Of a DNA stretch of 64,000 nucleotides, positions 18,001-24,000 are shown piece by piece. How positions within the stretch are numbered: the first letter of the stretch is position 1; every line of letters begins with the position of its first letter. A program made the position numbers. The stretch covers positions 704,001-768,000 of the forward strand of contig JBDRZU010000001.1 of NCBI GenBank assembly GCA_039804105.1. The letters run 5' to 3'. Source of the DNA: a candidate division WOR-3 bacterium. GTDB taxonomy: Bacteria; Hydrothermota; 32-111.

Positions 18001-21000
18001 GATTCATTAATCTGAACCCTTATCTCACCATCAGAAAATTTTGTAATAAGAGAATCAACAAGTGGAATATTCAACTTGTTAGATATCTCTTTTGCTATTT
18101 TGGCATTCGAATTTCCCGCTATAAGTTTCATATAAAACTCACATTTTTCTCTGGGGCGGTAGGATTCGAACCTACGAATGCGGGAACCAAAATCCCGTGG
18201 CTTGCCAGCTTGCCGACACCCCAATAAGTGTTAGTTAAATTTTACTTCCTAAAAGTTTTACTTCTTACTCACTTCCTGCTGATATTTTTCAAGAACGACT
18301 TTTTCAATCTTCTGTCTCATCTCATTGTTGATAGGATGGGCAATGTCTCTATATGTCCCATCTTTAGCCCTTCTTGAAGGCATGGAAATGAAAAGACCTT
18401 TTTTTCCGTCGATAATCTTTAAACCCCTGATAACAAATGCGTTGTCAAAAGTTACATTAGCAAATGCTTTCAACTTGGGTTCATCTCTTAATGTGATTCT
18501 TACTTCGGTAATTTCCATTCTTCCTCCTGAATTTTTGTTAGTAGTTCTTTTTTTATCCTATTTCGAGTTATCGGGGTGGTAAAAAAAATCCTGTTCCCAC
18601 CGAACTCTTTTCTTAGCGAATCAAAATGTTTTTCATTTTCAAAGATCGCAAAAATTGAAGATCCACTTCCACTCATAAGTGAAAGTAAAGGTTCATACTT
18701 TGTTATCCTATTTTTTATATCCTTCAATAAAGGATACCTTTCAAAAACAACCGTTTCAAAAATGTTATAAAAATTTTTGAAAGAACTTTTCAAATTTTTA
18801 TAATCAATTTTTGAATTTATAATATTATAAGATTTTCTATCATTTGTCAAGTGTTTAGATAGAAGGTTATATGCCTCTTTCGTTGAAACCTGAATATCTG
18901 GAGATATGATAAAAATTTTAAGATTTTCAATCTCAGGTATATCTAAAAATTCAAGTTCCTCACCTATACCAGTTCCTATTGCACTCCCACCTTCAACAAG
19001 AAATGGACAATCAGCACCGACCTTCAAAGAAAGTTGCCTAAGTTCTTCTTTTTCAAAGGGATAATCATAATAAAAATTTAAAAAATTGAGTATCGAAGAA
19101 CCATCAGCACTTCCACCACCAAGACCAGCACCTGATGGAATCTTTTTGTTGACTTTAAAATGGAAATCAACCCATTCACTTTCAGATTTGTTTAAAAAGG
19201 ATTCTTTAAAAATATGATACGATTTGTAAATAGTGTTGTTTTTCGGATCTATCATGCAATCACTGTTAAAAAATTCTATGTTTAAATCTTTACTTTCATA
19301 AACCTCGATATTATCAAAAAGATCTATCGATTGAAAAAAGGTGAGAATCTCATGAAAACCATCATCACGCCTGTTCAACACATCAAGAAAAAGATTTATT
19401 TTACAGAAAGATTTTACAAGATATCTCATTTTCTGAAAATGTTAACTACCTCAGAGAATTCAAAAATTTTATCAGGATCTTTTTCTATAGAATTCCCTGT
19501 TACGATAAAATCTGCTCCACTTTCAAGAATTTCAAGTGCTCTTTTTCGATCCTTTATACCTCCACCGACAATCAGTGGTTTTGATAAAATCTTTTTTGCA
19601 CTCTTAATAAAATTTAACGGAACAGTTTTTTCAGATCCACTCCCTGCCTCAAGGTAAACTATTTTGAAATTCGATATTTCTGAGAGATAGATATAGTTCA
19701 AAAAAGTTTTCATATCTTTTATAAAGTTTATAGGCACCCTTTTTGCAACACTCGTCTTTTTATCATCCATACAGAGTATATATGATGTTGGGATGATCTT
19801 TAATGATGATTTGTATAGATTTTCAGCACCGTTGATATGTTCTCCAATTATATAGTCAAGTTTTTTTGTATTCAAAAGAAAAAGCAATAAAAGAAAATCT
19901 GCATTTTTCGATATCTGATAGTGAGAACCAGGGAAAATAAAAGTTGGTTTTTTTGTTTTTTCTTTTATCGAAAGTATGAATCTATCAAAACCTTTAATCT
20001 TCTTATCACTTCCACCGATAAATATCCCATCAACTTTTGAACTATTTATATTTTTTATGATTCTTTCAAAATCTATTTTTTTTGCTGGATCAATTAAAAC
20101 AAAATATCCTTTTTTGTTTTCGTTGAAAATCTTTTCTATAGGGGAAATTACTTCCACAGCAACCTCATAATTATTTTCAAGATATATTTGTCCTTCATCA
20201 AACTACCCATAAAGTTTATAACCATACCTATCGCTTTAACTGAAGATTTAAAAGAATAAATCGTATAATAAAAATCTGATGAAAGTATTTTCTTACCATT
20301 GAAAAGATTTATCGCTGATGTAAAGAATTTATCCCTCTCCTCATCGGTCATTTCAAGCAACATCTCTCTTAACTGGTTCTGTTTTTTAATAGAGTAACTG
20401 TTATCCTTTTCAACAAGTTCCTGATATTGGGACATCCGCTTTGCTGAAAAATCTTTTCCTTTTAAAACGGTGTTTGCAACTATCGCTGCAAAGTTCGCCG
20501 TTCTTAAAGCATTATCTATACCACCACCTGTTATCGGATCAGCAGCTCTTGCACTATCACCTATAACCATAACCCTTTCAGAATACATTTTCGAAAGTTG
20601 ATTAACACTCACACATCCGGGAAATTCTCTTAAAATTTTTGCATCAGGATAATATTTTTGCCTGTATTCATTCAAAAGTTTGTAAGGTTTATCACAATCT
20701 ATAGAAGAAGTTATTCCTACTCCAAAGTTCGCTTCATTTTTTCCTCGTGGGAAAACCCAAAGATAACCACCTGGAGCAACCGACGGTGTGAAATCGAATA
20801 TTATCTCTTCATCATTTATTTTTGGATCATATATTATCTGCTGATAGCATGAATACATATCGTTAAGATTACAAACCGAGTTAATTCCAACTTTATATGG
20901 CAGATATGATTCAACTCCATCAGCTATTATGAGAATTTTTGCAAAATATTCTTCTCCATTTTCGAGTATAACTTTAACATAATCTTTTTCTACCTTGGCA

Positions 21001-24000
21001 TCAACGACAAAACTATTTGTTTTTATTTCAAAATTGTTTTCCTCTGTAACTTTCTGTGCAATAAACTTTTCAAACTTTGATCTATCTATTATAAGTCCCA
21101 TATCAGGTATATCAACATTCGCTTCAAGTTCTTTATATTTCACTTTCAGTTTTGTAAACCTGTTTCTTATGAAAGGGAAATCTGTCTCTTTAAAAAAATG
21201 TTTTAATGTGTTGTTCGAAATCCCTTCAGCACAGATTATAGGTTCTCCTATAATATCATCCTTTTCAAACACTATAACTTTATAGTTTTTATCTATCTTA
21301 TAAGCAGCATAAAGACCCGCAGGTCCACCACCAACAATGATCACATCATAATTTTTATCCATTTTTACTCAACGCTCCTACTGGACAAACTTTTATACAT
21401 TTATCACATTTAACACAACCTTCGTTTATCTGTAACCTATTCTTATACATCACGATAACCTTCACCGGACAGACAGCAACACAACCACCACAAAGTCCAC
21501 ATTTATCTTTTTCTACTTTTATATATTCCATACCTACTCCAAAATTATCTTTTTCAAATTTTCTAACATATTTTCATCAAACTCTTTAGAAACAGAACTA
21601 CCTGACGCAAGATCTTTTCTTCCACCACCTTTTCCCTTTAATATCTGGTTGATTTTTTCTATCACTTTCTTTGCATCCAGGTCAGTATTTGAACTGAAAA
21701 CTAAATAATTTATCTTATCTTCATCCTTACTCAAAAGTGTTCCACACACATGTTTCTCTTTACTTTTAATATTATCCATAATTTTCTTAAGGATGTCAAT
21801 AGTATAACCCTCGAAAAATCCAAAAACAGAAAGGTTACCATTCATTTTCTTCCCTTCGGATATCAATCGATCGGTTATAGAATTTATTTCATAAGTTAAA
21901 TATTTTTCGTTCTCTTTTTTCAACCTGTTATTTTCTTCAATTATTTTTTCAAATCTTTTTTCGAATTCATTAACATCTTTGATCTTATGTTTCAAAAACA
22001 ACATTTCTATTTTGTCGTTCAACTCTTGATAACTCTTTAAAGCGTATAAAGAAGTAAGAGCTTCTATCCTTCTGATACCTGTTGCTATTGATTCCTCTTT
22101 AACTATTCTAAAAAGTCCTATCTCTCCGGTTCTTTCTACATGTGTGCCACCGCACAATTCTTTCGAAACATTTTTTATGGAAACAACTCTAACTTCTCTG
22201 TCATATTTTTCGTTGAAAAAAGCCAGAGCACCTTCTTTTATCGCTTCTTCATATGGCATAATCCTCTTTTCAACTGGAATATTCTGGGATATTATCTCGT
22301 TGACACTATTTTCTATCAACTCTTTCTCCTCATCAGTCAACGGTTTAAAATGTAAAAAATCAAATCTGAATCTATCATAAGATACAAAAGAACCTTCCTG
22401 CCTTACATGTTCTCCAAGAACCTTTCTTAAAACTGAATGTAAAATGTGAGTCGCTGTATGGTTTCTCTGTATGAGATATCTTCTTTTAATATCAACATTT
22501 TGTTTATAGATTTTCCCTTTTTCAAATTCACCTAAAATCTTCTTTCCGATGAGCATATTTCCAAGTGGTGATTTGATGCAGTTTAGAACTTCAAACTCAA
22601 ATTGATCAGAAAAAACTGTTCCTGTATCTGCTATCTGTCCACCAGATTCAGCATAAAAAGGTGTTTCTTTCATCAAGAGTTCATACAAAGAATCTCCAAG
22701 ATCTCTATATCTTAAAATATATGATTCATTCTCAAGTGTCTCATACCCAACAAACTTTGAAACATCATCTTCGAACACAACAAAATCTTTTTTTTCAAAA
22801 TCTGTAAACACTTTATCCTTCCTGGATCTTTCTCTTGCTTCCTCAAGTAGTTGTTCAAATCCATTCTGATCGATTTCAAGGTTATCCTCTTCAGCCATCT
22901 GTTTTAGAAGATCGATAGGAAATCCAAATGTATCATAAAGTAAAAATAATGTTTTTCCATCAACAATATTCCCTTTCAGATTTTTCTTATAATCGTTGTA
23001 AAGTTGCATTCCTTGACCTATAGTTTTTAAAAATCTCTCCTCTTCTGATTTTATTATATTCTTCACTTTATCAACTGTATATAAAAGATATGGGTATTGA
23101 GTTTTCATTATTTTAACCACCTCAGATGTAAGATCATAAAGGAATGGTTTCTCTATCCCCATTTTAAATCCAAACCTAACCGCTCTTCTAAGAACTCTTC
23201 TAATAACATAACCTCGTCCCTCATTTTCAGGTATCACACCATCTGAGATTGAAAATGTAAGGGCTCTTATGTGGTCAGCTATAGAGTTTATCTCTTTTTT
23301 ATACTTTTCATAATCAAGATTGTATGTTTCAGAAAGTGTATTTATGATCGGCTTAAACAGATCAGTTTCGAAAATCGACTTTTTATTCTGCATGACAGTA
23401 GCAAGTCGTTCGAGTCCCATTCCAGTATCAACCCCTTTATTTTTAAGCAAAGTCCTATTTCCAGAACTATCCTGGTTGAACTGAGGGAAAACTATGTTCC
23501 ATATTTCAACATATCTTTTACAATCGTTTTCGATAGAACATGGTTTCTTATTTTCAAGTTCTTTCCCAAAATCATAAAATATTTCAGTTGAAGGCCCACA
23601 AGCACCTGTCCCTCCTGCTGGTCCCCAGAAATTCGTTCTGTCATCCATTTTGATTATTCTTTCAACTGGAATTTTTATAATATCCTTCCATATCCTGTAA
23701 GCTTCACTATCATCCTTATGAACAGTTACAAACAGTTTATCTTTATCTATCTTCAACTCATCAGTTAAAAACTCCCATCCCCATTTTATAGCTTCAAGTT
23801 GGAAGTAATCGTTGAAGGAAAAATTCCCAAGCATTTCAAAAAAAGTATCATGAAAAGGTGAAATCCCAACCTCTTCTAGATCAACCACCCTTAAACATTT
23901 TTGAATCGATGTGGCTCTTTTAAAATCAAAATCAACAAGACCTGCAAACATTGGCTTAAATTGAACCATTCCAGCAACAGTGAAAAGAAGTGTAGGGTCA

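Follow-up and report, generated by a model that had tools for sequence, protein, structure and literature searches.

Components of the archaeal core pathway EgsA-GGGPS-DGGGPS-CarS-GGR have been described in several bacteria. In Bacillus subtilis, the G1P dehydrogenase (G1PDH) AraM feeds the PcrB-family prenyltransferase to form an ether of sn-glycerol-1-phosphate (G1P), heptaprenylglyceryl phosphate, which leads to an acetyl carrier for lipoprotein N-acetylation (PMC12345273; Guldan 2008, 2011 as cited therein). Coleman et al. 2019 (PMC6431249) list Bacillus, Halanaerobium, Streptomyces, Chitinispirillum and Chitinivibrio with homologues of G1PDH, GGGPS and DGGGPS in one genome, and place bacterial G1PDHs in a deep clade beside the archaeal enzymes. 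Ca. Cloacimonetes combine a group-II GGGPS, DGGGPS, GGR and the MEP pathway with bacterial fatty-acid lipid genes, have no CarS, and are presumed to use CdsA as activator (Villanueva et al. 2020, PMC7852524). Asgard archaea that carry plsY and plsC but no G3P genes have G1PDH as their only recognisable glycerophosphate source (Rieche et al. 2026, PMC13400652).

Here, we analysed a 64,000-nt stretch of DNA (the window) from a candidate division WOR-3 genome together with the 13 genomes of its family of uncultured bacteria. Completeness is 85% for the genome of the window and at least 91% for 12 of the 13. This genome has four enzyme families in common with the archaeal core. It differs in having no CarS, the MEP rather than the mevalonate pathway, a bacterial-clade G1PDH and an FPP-synthase-type prenyl synthase, and additionally encodes PlsX, PlsY, PlsC and type II fatty-acid synthesis. 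The alaS-fdx-GGR-GGGPS-ispE run of the window would provide half of an isoprenoid ether-lipid route on G1P:

21534..24092, minus strand: alaS, the upstream neighbour (PF01411 592.2), which stops 2 nt ahead of the ferredoxin start
21355..21531, minus strand: ferredoxin, 2x[4Fe-4S], 58 aa, with two CxxCxxCxxxCP motifs
20148..21362, minus strand: GGR-family FAD enzyme (geranylgeranyl reductase), 404 aa (TIGR02032, PF22578)
19426..20157, minus strand: group-II GGGP synthase (PcrB family), 243 aa (PF01884, TIGR01768)
18500..19429, minus strand: ispE, MEP-pathway kinase (TIGR00154 196.8, cut-off 138.7)

Open reading frames and profile scores bear out the run of ferredoxin, GGR and GGGPS genes that the initial annotation had placed at 19426-21531. 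The genes overlap by 8 nt (fdx/GGR), 10 nt (GGR/GGGPS) and 4 nt (GGGPS/ispE), all on the minus strand, and fdx, GGR and GGGPS are translationally coupled to ispE. A search among RNA runs turned up none that contains this DNA. The order GGR-GGGPS-ispE-spoVG is conserved at 13 of 13 family loci, with one GGR copy truncated by a contig end and another shortened to 288 aa, and the ferredoxin was detected by tblastn in ten of these loci. PcrB/GGGPS occurs in all 13 family genomes, in agreement with the earlier count, and in none of five sister-family genomes. GGR scored above the subfamily cut-off of TIGR02032 (175.2 against 158.8) and that of the PF22578 catalytic domain (63.7 against 27), and below the digeranylgeranylglycerophospholipid reductase equivalogs (162.1 against 780); its top solved relative is the T. 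acidophilum digeranylgeranylglycerophospholipid reductase 3oz2 (TaGGR, 135.5 bits). The 58-aa ferredoxin, whose NCBIfam matches are solely ferredoxin-type and each under its cut-off, is the presumed electron donor to this reductase. The same gene pairing, a GGR with an adjacent ferredoxin, is reportedly found in M. acetivorans, in work attributed to Isobe from 2014.

GGGPS matched PF01884 (123.2) and TIGR01768 (139.9, cut-off 113.25) and stayed under the GGGP equivalog cut-off (TIGR01769, 148.8 against 161.55). Its top solved relatives are the group II structures 4jej, 6nke and 6jo3 (114-120 bits), versus 49.1 bits for Bacillus PcrB 3vzx and 43.6 bits for A. fulgidus 2f6u; by sequence, the enzyme classifies as group II rather than as a Bacillus-type PcrB or group I. 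Its YLEAGSG and GGGI stretches align to FjGGGPS. The C20 limiter residue of group II GGGPS is I90 of FjGGGPS (PMC9385802), and an Ile of the WOR-3 enzyme aligns to the Ile at 4jej chain index 90, as counted from the alignment, an index from which the published numbering may be offset.

The other half of the route would lie elsewhere in the genome, in the form of a bacterial-clade G1PDH and a DGGGPS-type UbiA prenyltransferase:

C2:902-1963: EgsA-like G1P dehydrogenase gene (NF002022)
C2:107352-108197: DGGGPS-type UbiA prenyltransferase gene (6m31 alignment)

The first of these had been annotated as an archaeal-type EgsA. Its assignment to the G1PDH family stands, with 286.3 for NF002022 versus 83.1 for glycerol dehydrogenase (GldA), and solved G1PDHs scored 148-163 bits against the protein, compared to at most 64 for GldA and at most 33 for DHQS. 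The score misses the NCBIfam equivalog cut-off of 413, as do those of all 115 phylum matches; archaeal sequences seem to underlie the model. Across 15 EgsA-like sequences, GGG92-94, D121, H248, H252 and H265 do not vary, and they align to 4rgq. In the M. jannaschii G1PDH structure, an Asp and two His reportedly bind the metal and GGG forms the nucleotide loop, roles that we presume for the corresponding residues here. The archaeal affiliation was not retained: in our tree the G1PDH of the family groups within a bacterial clade and is not a recent import of archaeal EgsA, and it falls into the deep bacterial clade of Coleman et al. 2019 (PMC6431249). Within the phylum, the family enzymes form a separate clade (32-41% identity to those of other phylum families), and 47 columns, the GGG, Asp and His residues named above among them, are invariant between the two sets. 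The gene occurs throughout the family (13 of 13 genomes) and in none of three sister-family genomes, and distinguishes the family from Ca. Cloacimonetes, whose genomes are described as lacking egsA/araM (PMC7852524).

The annotated DGGGPS was upheld by a full-length match (residues 10-279) to its closest solved structure, M. jannaschii DGGGPS 6m31, at 135.1 bits; the next structure, chlorophyll synthase, reached only 43.7 bits. Both Asp-rich motifs are present in the alignment to MjDGGGPS, and the protein scored under the equivalog cut-offs of NF009523 (218.5 against 269) and NF009521 (182.2 against 296). DGGGPS is likewise found throughout the family (13/13) and in none of five sister-family genomes, and its gene overlaps uppP (polyprenyl-diphosphate phosphatase).

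Regarding the prenyl chains, the protein annotated as GGPP synthase, the sole trans-prenyl diphosphate synthase of the genome, scores as an FPP synthase (NF045485 294.7, above 275) versus 257.4 for CrtE GGPPS (below 460). In all 13 family genomes, its motif IHTYSLIHDDLPAMD has a Tyr fifth before the FARM together with an insertion. This combination is said to mark eubacterial FPP synthases, a rule ascribed to Wang and Ohnuma in 1999. Among GGPP synthases, type II combines an inserted FARM with small residues four and five positions ahead of it, and type I has an aromatic fifth residue and no insertion (PMC9385802). A GGPP synthase identity was rejected, as the protein fits neither type. Because the only prenyl synthase is FPP-synthase-like, the archaeol-type (C20) lipids proposed earlier are not established, and the chains may be C15 or C20; Ca. 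Cloacimonetes, in contrast, have two polyprenyl synthases (PMC7852524). The gene for the CDP-activation candidate, cdsA, lies in the window next to dxr and uppS:

48825..49955, minus strand: dxr, MEP pathway (PF02670, PF08436, PF13288), adjoining cdsA
49952..50932, minus strand: CdsA, CDP-diacylglycerol synthase (PF01148 190.5, NF008635 112.6)
50778..51497, minus strand: uppS, cis-prenyltransferase (PF01255 301.5), adjoining cdsA

A PF01864 search of the window's genome for CarS reproduced the sub-threshold match noted before, 19.5 bits (cut-off 22) on CdsA alone, and since no CarS was found, CdsA is the only candidate for this step. The preferred substrate of E. coli CdsA is phosphatidic acid, and DGGGP is not readily used (2022 review, PMC9385802); E. 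coli supplied with GGGPS and DGGGPS and without CarS formed PG-archaeol (Villanueva 2020, PMC7852524).

The bacterial G3P path, read as full in the initial annotation, is missing its first enzyme. GpsA (PF07479) occurs in 0 of 13 family genomes, compared to 221 of the 228 remaining phylum genomes, and was not found in the window's genome by PF01210, PF07479 or tblastn (sister-family GpsA as query; no match, best E-value 0.041). Two PF01210 matches (25.8 and 21 bits) are ORFs of about 430 aa that look UDP-glucose-dehydrogenase-type by eye and were rejected as GpsA. The genes der-plsY-merR form an uninterrupted run in 12 of the 13 family genomes, and gpsA lies between plsY and merR in two sister-family genomes; throughout the family, gpsA has been cleanly cut out of the conserved locus der-plsY-gpsA-merR. 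GlpK and DAO_C were found in none of five family genomes scanned, GDPD and GlpT in none of 13, and no candidate for the missing G3P-forming step was identified. Within the class, the two dehydrogenases have complementary distributions, with EgsA but no GpsA in the family and GpsA but no EgsA in the sister family. Bacillus, a control in the GpsA search, keeps the enzyme, unlike the WOR-3 family, and for the bacteria of Coleman et al. 2019 (PMC6431249), which belong to other lineages, the passages cited report no loss of GpsA.

The genes for ester lipids are retained. In the plsX-fabH-fabD-fabG-acpP-fabF run, PlsX (286.6, cut-off 243.4) and FabH, FabD, FabG and FabF all exceed curated cut-offs, as annotated, and a 79-aa ACP was assigned by reading the ORF. 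The two PlsY and one PlsC-type acyltransferase reported earlier were recovered (PlsY1 169.1, cut-off 137.2; PlsC-type PF01553 98.7 and TIGR00530 83.9, under 102.95). PlsB was not found, the single PF01553 match in the genome being a 216-aa protein. PlsY1 retains the G3P pocket of Aquifex PlsY (S35, R45, K104, H177, N180) with S142 to T as the sole change, a conservation that is just as expected if G3P remains the substrate. For purified PlsY and PlsC of B. subtilis and E. coli, G1P and G3P are about equally good substrates, and PlsB is restricted to G3P (Rieche et al. 2026, PMC13400652), a promiscuity shown only in vitro and for two model species.

Together, these genes suggest a route in which G1PDH would convert DHAP to G1P, GGGPS would attach the first prenyl chain and thereby form the first ether bond on G1P, and DGGGPS would add the second. 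The co-encoded ferredoxin would supply the GGR-family flavoenzyme with electrons to saturate the chains, and the head group would be added via CdsA, with no CarS, and a single inositol-phosphate-type CDP-alcohol transferase. As gpsA is deleted and no other tested G3P route was found, G1P is most likely the sole glycerophosphate made. Ester lipids might also be built on G1P via PlsX, PlsY and PlsC, because purified PlsY and PlsC take both enantiomers, and the expected membrane would have mixed tails and one backbone chirality, the archaeal one. Reading the observed gene presence, conservation, synteny and gpsA deletion in terms of activities, stereochemistry and products, we put at about even the chance that G1P forms the backbone of ester as well as ether lipids and that the membrane is thereby homochiral, not heterochiral. 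Somewhat more tentatively, the family may have switched its glycerolipid backbone, with isoprenoid ethers and fatty-acid esters all on G1P. If true, this would be a natural bacterium with archaeal backbone chirality in its whole membrane, and a lineage that crossed the stereochemical lipid divide. The Asgard archaea in question gained bacterial acyltransferases (PMC13400652), whereas the WOR-3 family is a bacterium that lost its own G3P dehydrogenase.

The earlier proposal of a mixed-lipid capacity stands insofar as G1PDH, GGGPS, DGGGPS and GGR/ferredoxin occur beside PlsX/Y/C and type II fatty-acid synthesis and are conserved in the family; a heterochiral membrane is not the obvious outcome, since no G3P supply is recognisable. 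Such a membrane, with G1P isoprenoid ethers and ordinary G3P ester lipids, would draw G3P from an unrecognised source (Ugp-type import, a non-orthologous DHAP reductase or scavenged lipids). The intact PlsX, PlsY, PlsC and fatty-acid synthesis genes and the conserved PlsY1 pocket are consistent with it, and a mixed G1P/G3P state is the phylum norm, as GpsA is kept in 87 of 89 other phylum genomes with G1PDH and GGGPS. We nonetheless regard it as rather unlikely, given the family-wide excision of gpsA, the failure to find GlpK and DAO_C (five genomes), GDPD or GlpT, and a missing step with no candidate; moreover, PlsY does not require G3P in vitro (Rieche et al. 2026, PMC13400652).

A low-abundance specialised lipid outside the bulk membrane, possibly a short C15 prenyl glyceryl lipid, would follow the model of B. 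subtilis AraM/PcrB and the minor carrier lipid formed there (PMC12345273). The FPP-synthase-like prenyl synthase, the lack of a detectable CarS and the overlap of the DGGGPS gene with uppP would fit; however, Bacillus attaches one C35 chain and has neither DGGGPS nor GGR (PMC12345273), whereas a second prenyltransferase closest to MjDGGGPS, together with a reductase that has a ferredoxin of its own, favours a saturated diether over a mono-prenyl carrier. GGGPS is group II, not Bacillus-type, and the gpsA loss would be left unexplained, making this explanation improbable. The complementary occurrence of EgsA and GpsA between family and sister family, and the divergence of the family enzyme into its own clade, could also reflect non-orthologous displacement, in which the EgsA-like enzyme would replace GpsA and supply G3P or both enantiomers; chirality would then be conventional, with GGGPS promiscuous on G3P, on which some activity is described (Villanueva 2020, PMC7852524). 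This appears very unlikely, as all 47 invariant columns, presumed metal ligands included, are common to enzymes of GpsA-keeping families, and the tight co-occurrence with a G1P-using GGGPS fits G1P. We know of no member of the G1PDH family that makes G3P.

The G1PDH and GGGPS set is phylum-wide and not special to the window's genome: EgsA and PcrB occur together in 102 of 241 phylum genomes, i.e. in 102 of the 115 that are EgsA-positive. The novelty earlier seen in a full gene set with G1PDH is therefore not upheld, as single bacterial genomes that hold all three archaeal genes had already been listed (Coleman et al. 2019, PMC6431249). With the three-gene idea in print, the new element is the loss of gpsA.

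The archaeal-type lipid genes assigned to 19426-21531 lie on the minus strand between alaS and ispE:

21534-24092, minus strand: alaS, heading a tight four-gene run
21355-21531, minus strand: ferredoxin, 58 aa, with two four-cysteine motifs
20148-21362, minus strand: flavoenzyme of the geranylgeranyl reductase (GGR) family, 404 aa (TIGR02032 175.2, cut-off 158.8, and PF22578 passed)
19426-20157, minus strand: PcrB-family protein (GGGPS), 243 aa (PF01884 123.2; TIGR01768 139.9, cut-off 113.25)
18500-19429, minus strand: ispE (equivalog 196.8, cut-off 138.7, passed)

Successive genes of this run overlap by 8, 10 and 4 nt, suggesting translational coupling, and downstream of ispE the run continues with spoVG, prs, the L25 gene and pth. 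Open reading frames, family profiles and solved relatives confirmed the gene content that the initial annotation had placed here. The PcrB-family protein scored 148.8 against the GGGP equivalog TIGR01769, below its cut-off of 161.55; its top solved relatives were the group II GGGP synthases 4jej, 6nke and 6jo3 (114-120 bits), far ahead of Bacillus PcrB (49 bits) and A. fulgidus GGGPS (44). The top alignment of the flavoenzyme was to the T. acidophilum digeranylgeranylglycerophospholipid reductase 3oz2 (135.5 bits). Within the genome's own family (13 genomes from five genera, 12 of them at least 91% complete), the order GGR-GGGPS-ispE-spoVG was present in all 13 loci, with GGGPS identities to the window copy of 39-94%. 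Ten of the 13 loci gave a ferredoxin match; the exceptions are two genomes from a single genus and one whose contig breaks off inside GGR. In G001, which belongs to the genus of the window's genome, the corresponding locus (L049, about 2245-3111) encodes a reductase of 288 aa from which approximately positions 288-385 of the 404-aa protein are missing; the final 19 residues of the full-length form still align immediately downstream. No RNA run containing the stretch was found. A large share of it occurs only in the run that is probably its source and in two further runs from that study; these carry the label hot springs metagenome and are not independent.

Two further genes of the set are located on contig C2 of the same genome, and CdsA is encoded in the window:

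C2:902-1963: protein similar to glycerol-1-phosphate dehydrogenase (G1PDH), Fe-ADH fold, 353 aa (NF002022 286.3; glycerol dehydrogenase 83.1)
C2:107352-108197: DGGGPS-like UbiA protein, 281 aa (full-length alignment to M. jannaschii DGGGPS 6m31, 135.1 bits)
49952-50932, in the window: CdsA, bearing the sole CarS match, below cut-off

The G1PDH-like protein reached 148-163 bits against solved G1PDHs and at most 64 bits against glycerol dehydrogenases; its NF002022 score lies below the curated cut-off of 413. Its top solved match, 3ce9 (187 bits), was deposited as "glycerol dehydrogenase" and is presumably an uncharacterised structural-genomics entry. In the DGGGPS-like protein both Asp-rich motifs aligned and the next solved UbiA enzyme reached 43.7 bits, with the NCBIfam cut-off missed (218.5 against 269). 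The archaeal-type assignment of the gene set largely holds at the level of family matches, the equivalog cut-offs being missed. No CarS was found by profile search of the genome, the best score, on CdsA, being 19.5 bits (cut-off 22). The DGGGPS-like gene overlaps the start of uppP (undecaprenyl-diphosphatase, TIGR00753 179 bits; C2:106561-108197 for the pair) and follows an HflK-like gene. A second UbiA gene (C1:409678-410610) has glycosyltransferase and polysaccharide-deacetylase genes clustered around it, and a third, divergent one, of 293 aa and scoring only 32 bits on NF009523, overlaps the gene of a 443-aa FAD-type oxidoreductase without a family name, the pair (C2:147613-149812) adjoining hydE.

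The origin of the G1PDH-like gene was examined in a tree of 100 sequences (IQ-TREE quick, LG+C20, no outgroup), built from 12 family members, 11 sequences of other phylum families and 77 public relatives, the best 80 less three that lacked a usable full-length match. Two clans were separated with an SH-aLRT of 99: an archaeal clan of 63 archaea and two bacterial MAG rows, and a bacterial clan of 35 rows holding the family, other phylum families, Streptomyces, Actinomycetes, Ignavibacteriales, Brevinematales, an alphaproteobacterial MAG and Coprothermobacterota. The family was monophyletic (100), and its sister was an Ignavibacteriales-to-Actinomycetes group (91) rather than the other families of its phylum, on an unresolved clan backbone. 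This position agrees with the deep bacterial G1PDH clan described by Coleman et al. 2019, so that the enzyme, which had been called EgsA-type, does belong to the EgsA/AraM family and is better read as a member of its bacterial clade than as archaeal in type. Two rows titled as bacterial MAGs (L064 and L101; Lutimonas and Limnocylindrales) nest inside Nitrosopumilus and Bathyarchaeia clades, through either a binning error or recent transfer, and a Nanobdellati archaeon row forms a long branch inside the bacterial clan. Next to the gene itself (C2:1953-3908), G1PDH is preceded by a membrane protein without an NCBIfam match (longest open reading frame 651 aa here, about 490 aa in relatives), with glycosyltransferase genes beyond; this pairing is kept in two genera and not in a third.

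The G1PDH-like gene, PcrB and the DGGGPS-like gene were each present in 13/13 family genomes. In the sister family, which belongs to the same class, neither PcrB nor DGGGPS occurred (0/5 each), and G1PDH was absent from the three sister-family genomes scanned, two less than 80% complete having been left out. Across the phylum (241 genomes at least 80% complete; G1PDH-like threshold E ≤1e-40), 115 genomes carried a G1PDH-like gene and 151 PcrB, 102 having both, 13 G1PDH alone and 49 PcrB alone. One other family, f19 (G084-G094), has the G1PDH-like gene in nine of 11 genomes and PcrB in none, indicating that the enzyme there has some use besides feeding GGGPS. According to Coleman et al. 2019 (PMC6431249), all three archaeal genes occur in Bacillus, Halanaerobium, Streptomyces, Chitinispirillum and Chitinivibrio genomes, and Table 1 of that paper names WOR-3 and TA06; Villanueva et al. 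2020 (PMC7852524) describe active GGGPS and DGGGPS from Cloacimonetes, where they report egsA/araM and CarS as missing. The full gene set, as initially put forward, is thus of a known kind and common in the phylum.

What sets the family apart is the loss of GpsA. Although a full glycerol-3-phosphate (G3P) path had been proposed, none was found: PF07479 finds nothing in the window's genome, PF01210 only two open reading frames of ~430 aa, of UDP-glucose-dehydrogenase type by eye, and tblastn with two sister-family GpsA queries gave a best E of 0.041. That match was rejected as a gpsA trace, as it falls in an unrelated 522-aa open reading frame. PF07479 was likewise absent from all 13 family genomes and present in 221 of 228 others of the phylum, the seven misses being single genomes spread over six families. 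Two sister-family genomes show the order der-plsY-gpsA-merR. In 12 of the 13 family genomes der, plsY and merR are contiguous, and the thirteenth contig ends at plsY; because the genes adjoin where the sister family holds gpsA, its absence reflects deletion and not an assembly gap. Indeed, plsY and merR overlap in the window's genome, leaving no room for a gpsA remnant. Scans for other G3P routes, in each of which control genomes matched, were negative for glycerol kinase (TIGR01311; 0/5 family genomes, from four genera), the GlpD-type DAO_C domain (0/5) and for glycerophosphodiesterase (PF03009) and GlpT (each 0/13). Outside the family, GpsA is kept in 87 of the 89 phylum genomes with both G1PDH and PcrB, making the family the exception in its phylum. 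We found no bacterium with G1PDH and without GpsA in the literature searched, which excluded subscription journals and supplements; the new element is that the whole family has had gpsA excised while G1PDH is fixed in it.

The ester-branch genes reported beside the archaeal set are intact. PlsX, FabH, FabD, FabG and FabF all scored above curated cut-offs, a 79-aa ACP open reading frame lies between fabG and fabF, and most family genomes have two copies of PlsY. One PlsC-type acyltransferase is encoded, and no PlsB-sized protein was found. The der-linked PlsY retains the G3P pocket of Aquifex PlsY (S35, R45, K104, H177, N180); the second copy is without the GSGN motif. Position 142 is Thr in 13/13 family genomes versus Ser in 4/4 of the sister family, to which we gave no weight as a family signal, the position being variable (52.6% Ser over 7,288 homologues in Table 2 of PMC5700162). 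Sister-family genomes have three to six PlsY-family matches each, versus mostly two in the window's family, and some fall in open reading frames of about 400 aa that may be fusions.

Rieche et al. 2026 (PMC13400652) report that purified PlsY and PlsC of B. subtilis and E. coli use G1P about as well as G3P and that PlsB is strictly G3P-specific, and point to Asgard archaea with plsY and plsC and without G3P genes. Combining PlsY and PlsC with a fixed G1PDH and lacking both PlsB and GpsA, the family is their bacterial counterpart. In our best reading, held at roughly even odds, G1P would be the only glycerophosphate made and would feed both branches. GGGPS, DGGGPS and reduction by GGR with ferredoxin would then yield the ethers, PlsX, PlsY and PlsC acting on G1P would yield the esters, and head groups would come from CdsA and a single CDP-alcohol transferase. 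The membrane would have mixed tails on a backbone of one chirality. Given the loss of gpsA and the in vitro use of G1P by PlsY and PlsC, this is a better reading than the heterochiral membrane first suggested, which would need an unrecognised G3P source beyond the routes scanned, for example Ugp-type import or an unknown DHAP reductase, and which we consider possible, if rather unlikely. Instead, the ether genes might make a carrier-type lipid of low abundance, on the model of B. subtilis, whose PcrB product is described as an acetyl carrier for lipoprotein N-acetylation (PMC12345273); we regard this as improbable. Least probable, and by our estimate very unlikely, is that the EgsA-like enzyme replaced GpsA and makes G3P: 47 invariant columns held in common with enzymes from families keeping GpsA speak against it.

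The division between archaeal G1P ethers and bacterial G3P esters is central to debates on the LUCA membrane and on eukaryogenesis. Archaeal-type lipid genes have been found in bacteria before; since G3P synthesis is kept, or assumed kept, in the published cases examined, those speak only to mixed membranes. A family with PlsX, PlsY and PlsC, gpsA deleted and G1PDH fixed offers a natural test of whether bacterial acyltransferases run on an archaeal backbone, a possibility to which the in vitro results of Rieche et al. 2026 point.

Prenyl chain length and CDP activation fit the proposed route less well. Exactly one trans-prenyl diphosphate synthase is encoded in each of the 13 family genomes, in the context xseA-ispA-dxs. 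Annotated as a GGPP synthase, it instead passed the FPP-synthase model (294.7, cut-off 275) and failed that of CrtE GGPPS (257.4, cut-off 460). In all 13 genomes a Tyr stands fifth before the first Asp-rich motif (FARM), with a two-residue insertion, a combination reportedly marking eubacterial FPP synthase (Wang and Ohnuma 1999). A 2022 review (PMC9385802) gives small residues at this position for type II GGPPS and an aromatic residue without insertion for type I. The only prenyl synthase of the sister family, which is without GGGPS, has Ala there (L156, L158, L168, L170), predicting a longer product, whereas the Tyr of the ether-gene family (L013 and 12 further family loci) predicts C15. This pattern is the reverse of that expected from the lipid genes. 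Judged from these residues, the ethers could carry C15 chains, or the synthase may make some GGPP.

As to CDP activation, E. coli CdsA is stated in the same review to prefer phosphatidic acid over DGGGP, yet in the experiment of Villanueva et al. 2020 E. coli without CarS made PG-archaeol. The CDP-alcohol transferase of the window's genome scored best as archaetidylinositol-phosphate synthase (154.6, cut-off 180), followed by PIP synthase (125.9) and, far below, PgsA (38.7); outside the window, its gene overlaps that of inositol-3-phosphate synthase (TIGR03450 541.8 bits; C2:26486-28175). A single transferase of this inositol-phosphate type with the adjoining synthase was present in all 18 class genomes (L172-L189), none of which yielded a PgsA- or PssA-type enzyme, and by gene content most head groups may be those of inositol phospholipids. 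The loss of PgsA, which uses G3P, was rejected as a family-specific sign, being a trait of the whole class including the sister family.

Elsewhere in the window, a Lnt-like CN-hydrolase, an 850-aa OmpA-domain protein and a TonB-ExbD-ExbD-ExbB set (7919-12559 and 27075-29212) fit a two-membrane cell envelope. A long run of open reading frames without Pfam matches (29290-40993, minus strand) includes two DUF6754 proteins (35207-36493 and 38659-39861), suggestive of a duplicated gene block, and is followed by a glutamate-mutase-type MutL protein (41008-42798). GC skew is negative in 31 of 32 two-kb bins, and among the 68 genes called only two lie on the plus strand, one of which (5785-6321) encodes a 179-aa PEMT-family protein resembling phospholipid or isoprenylcysteine methyltransferases.
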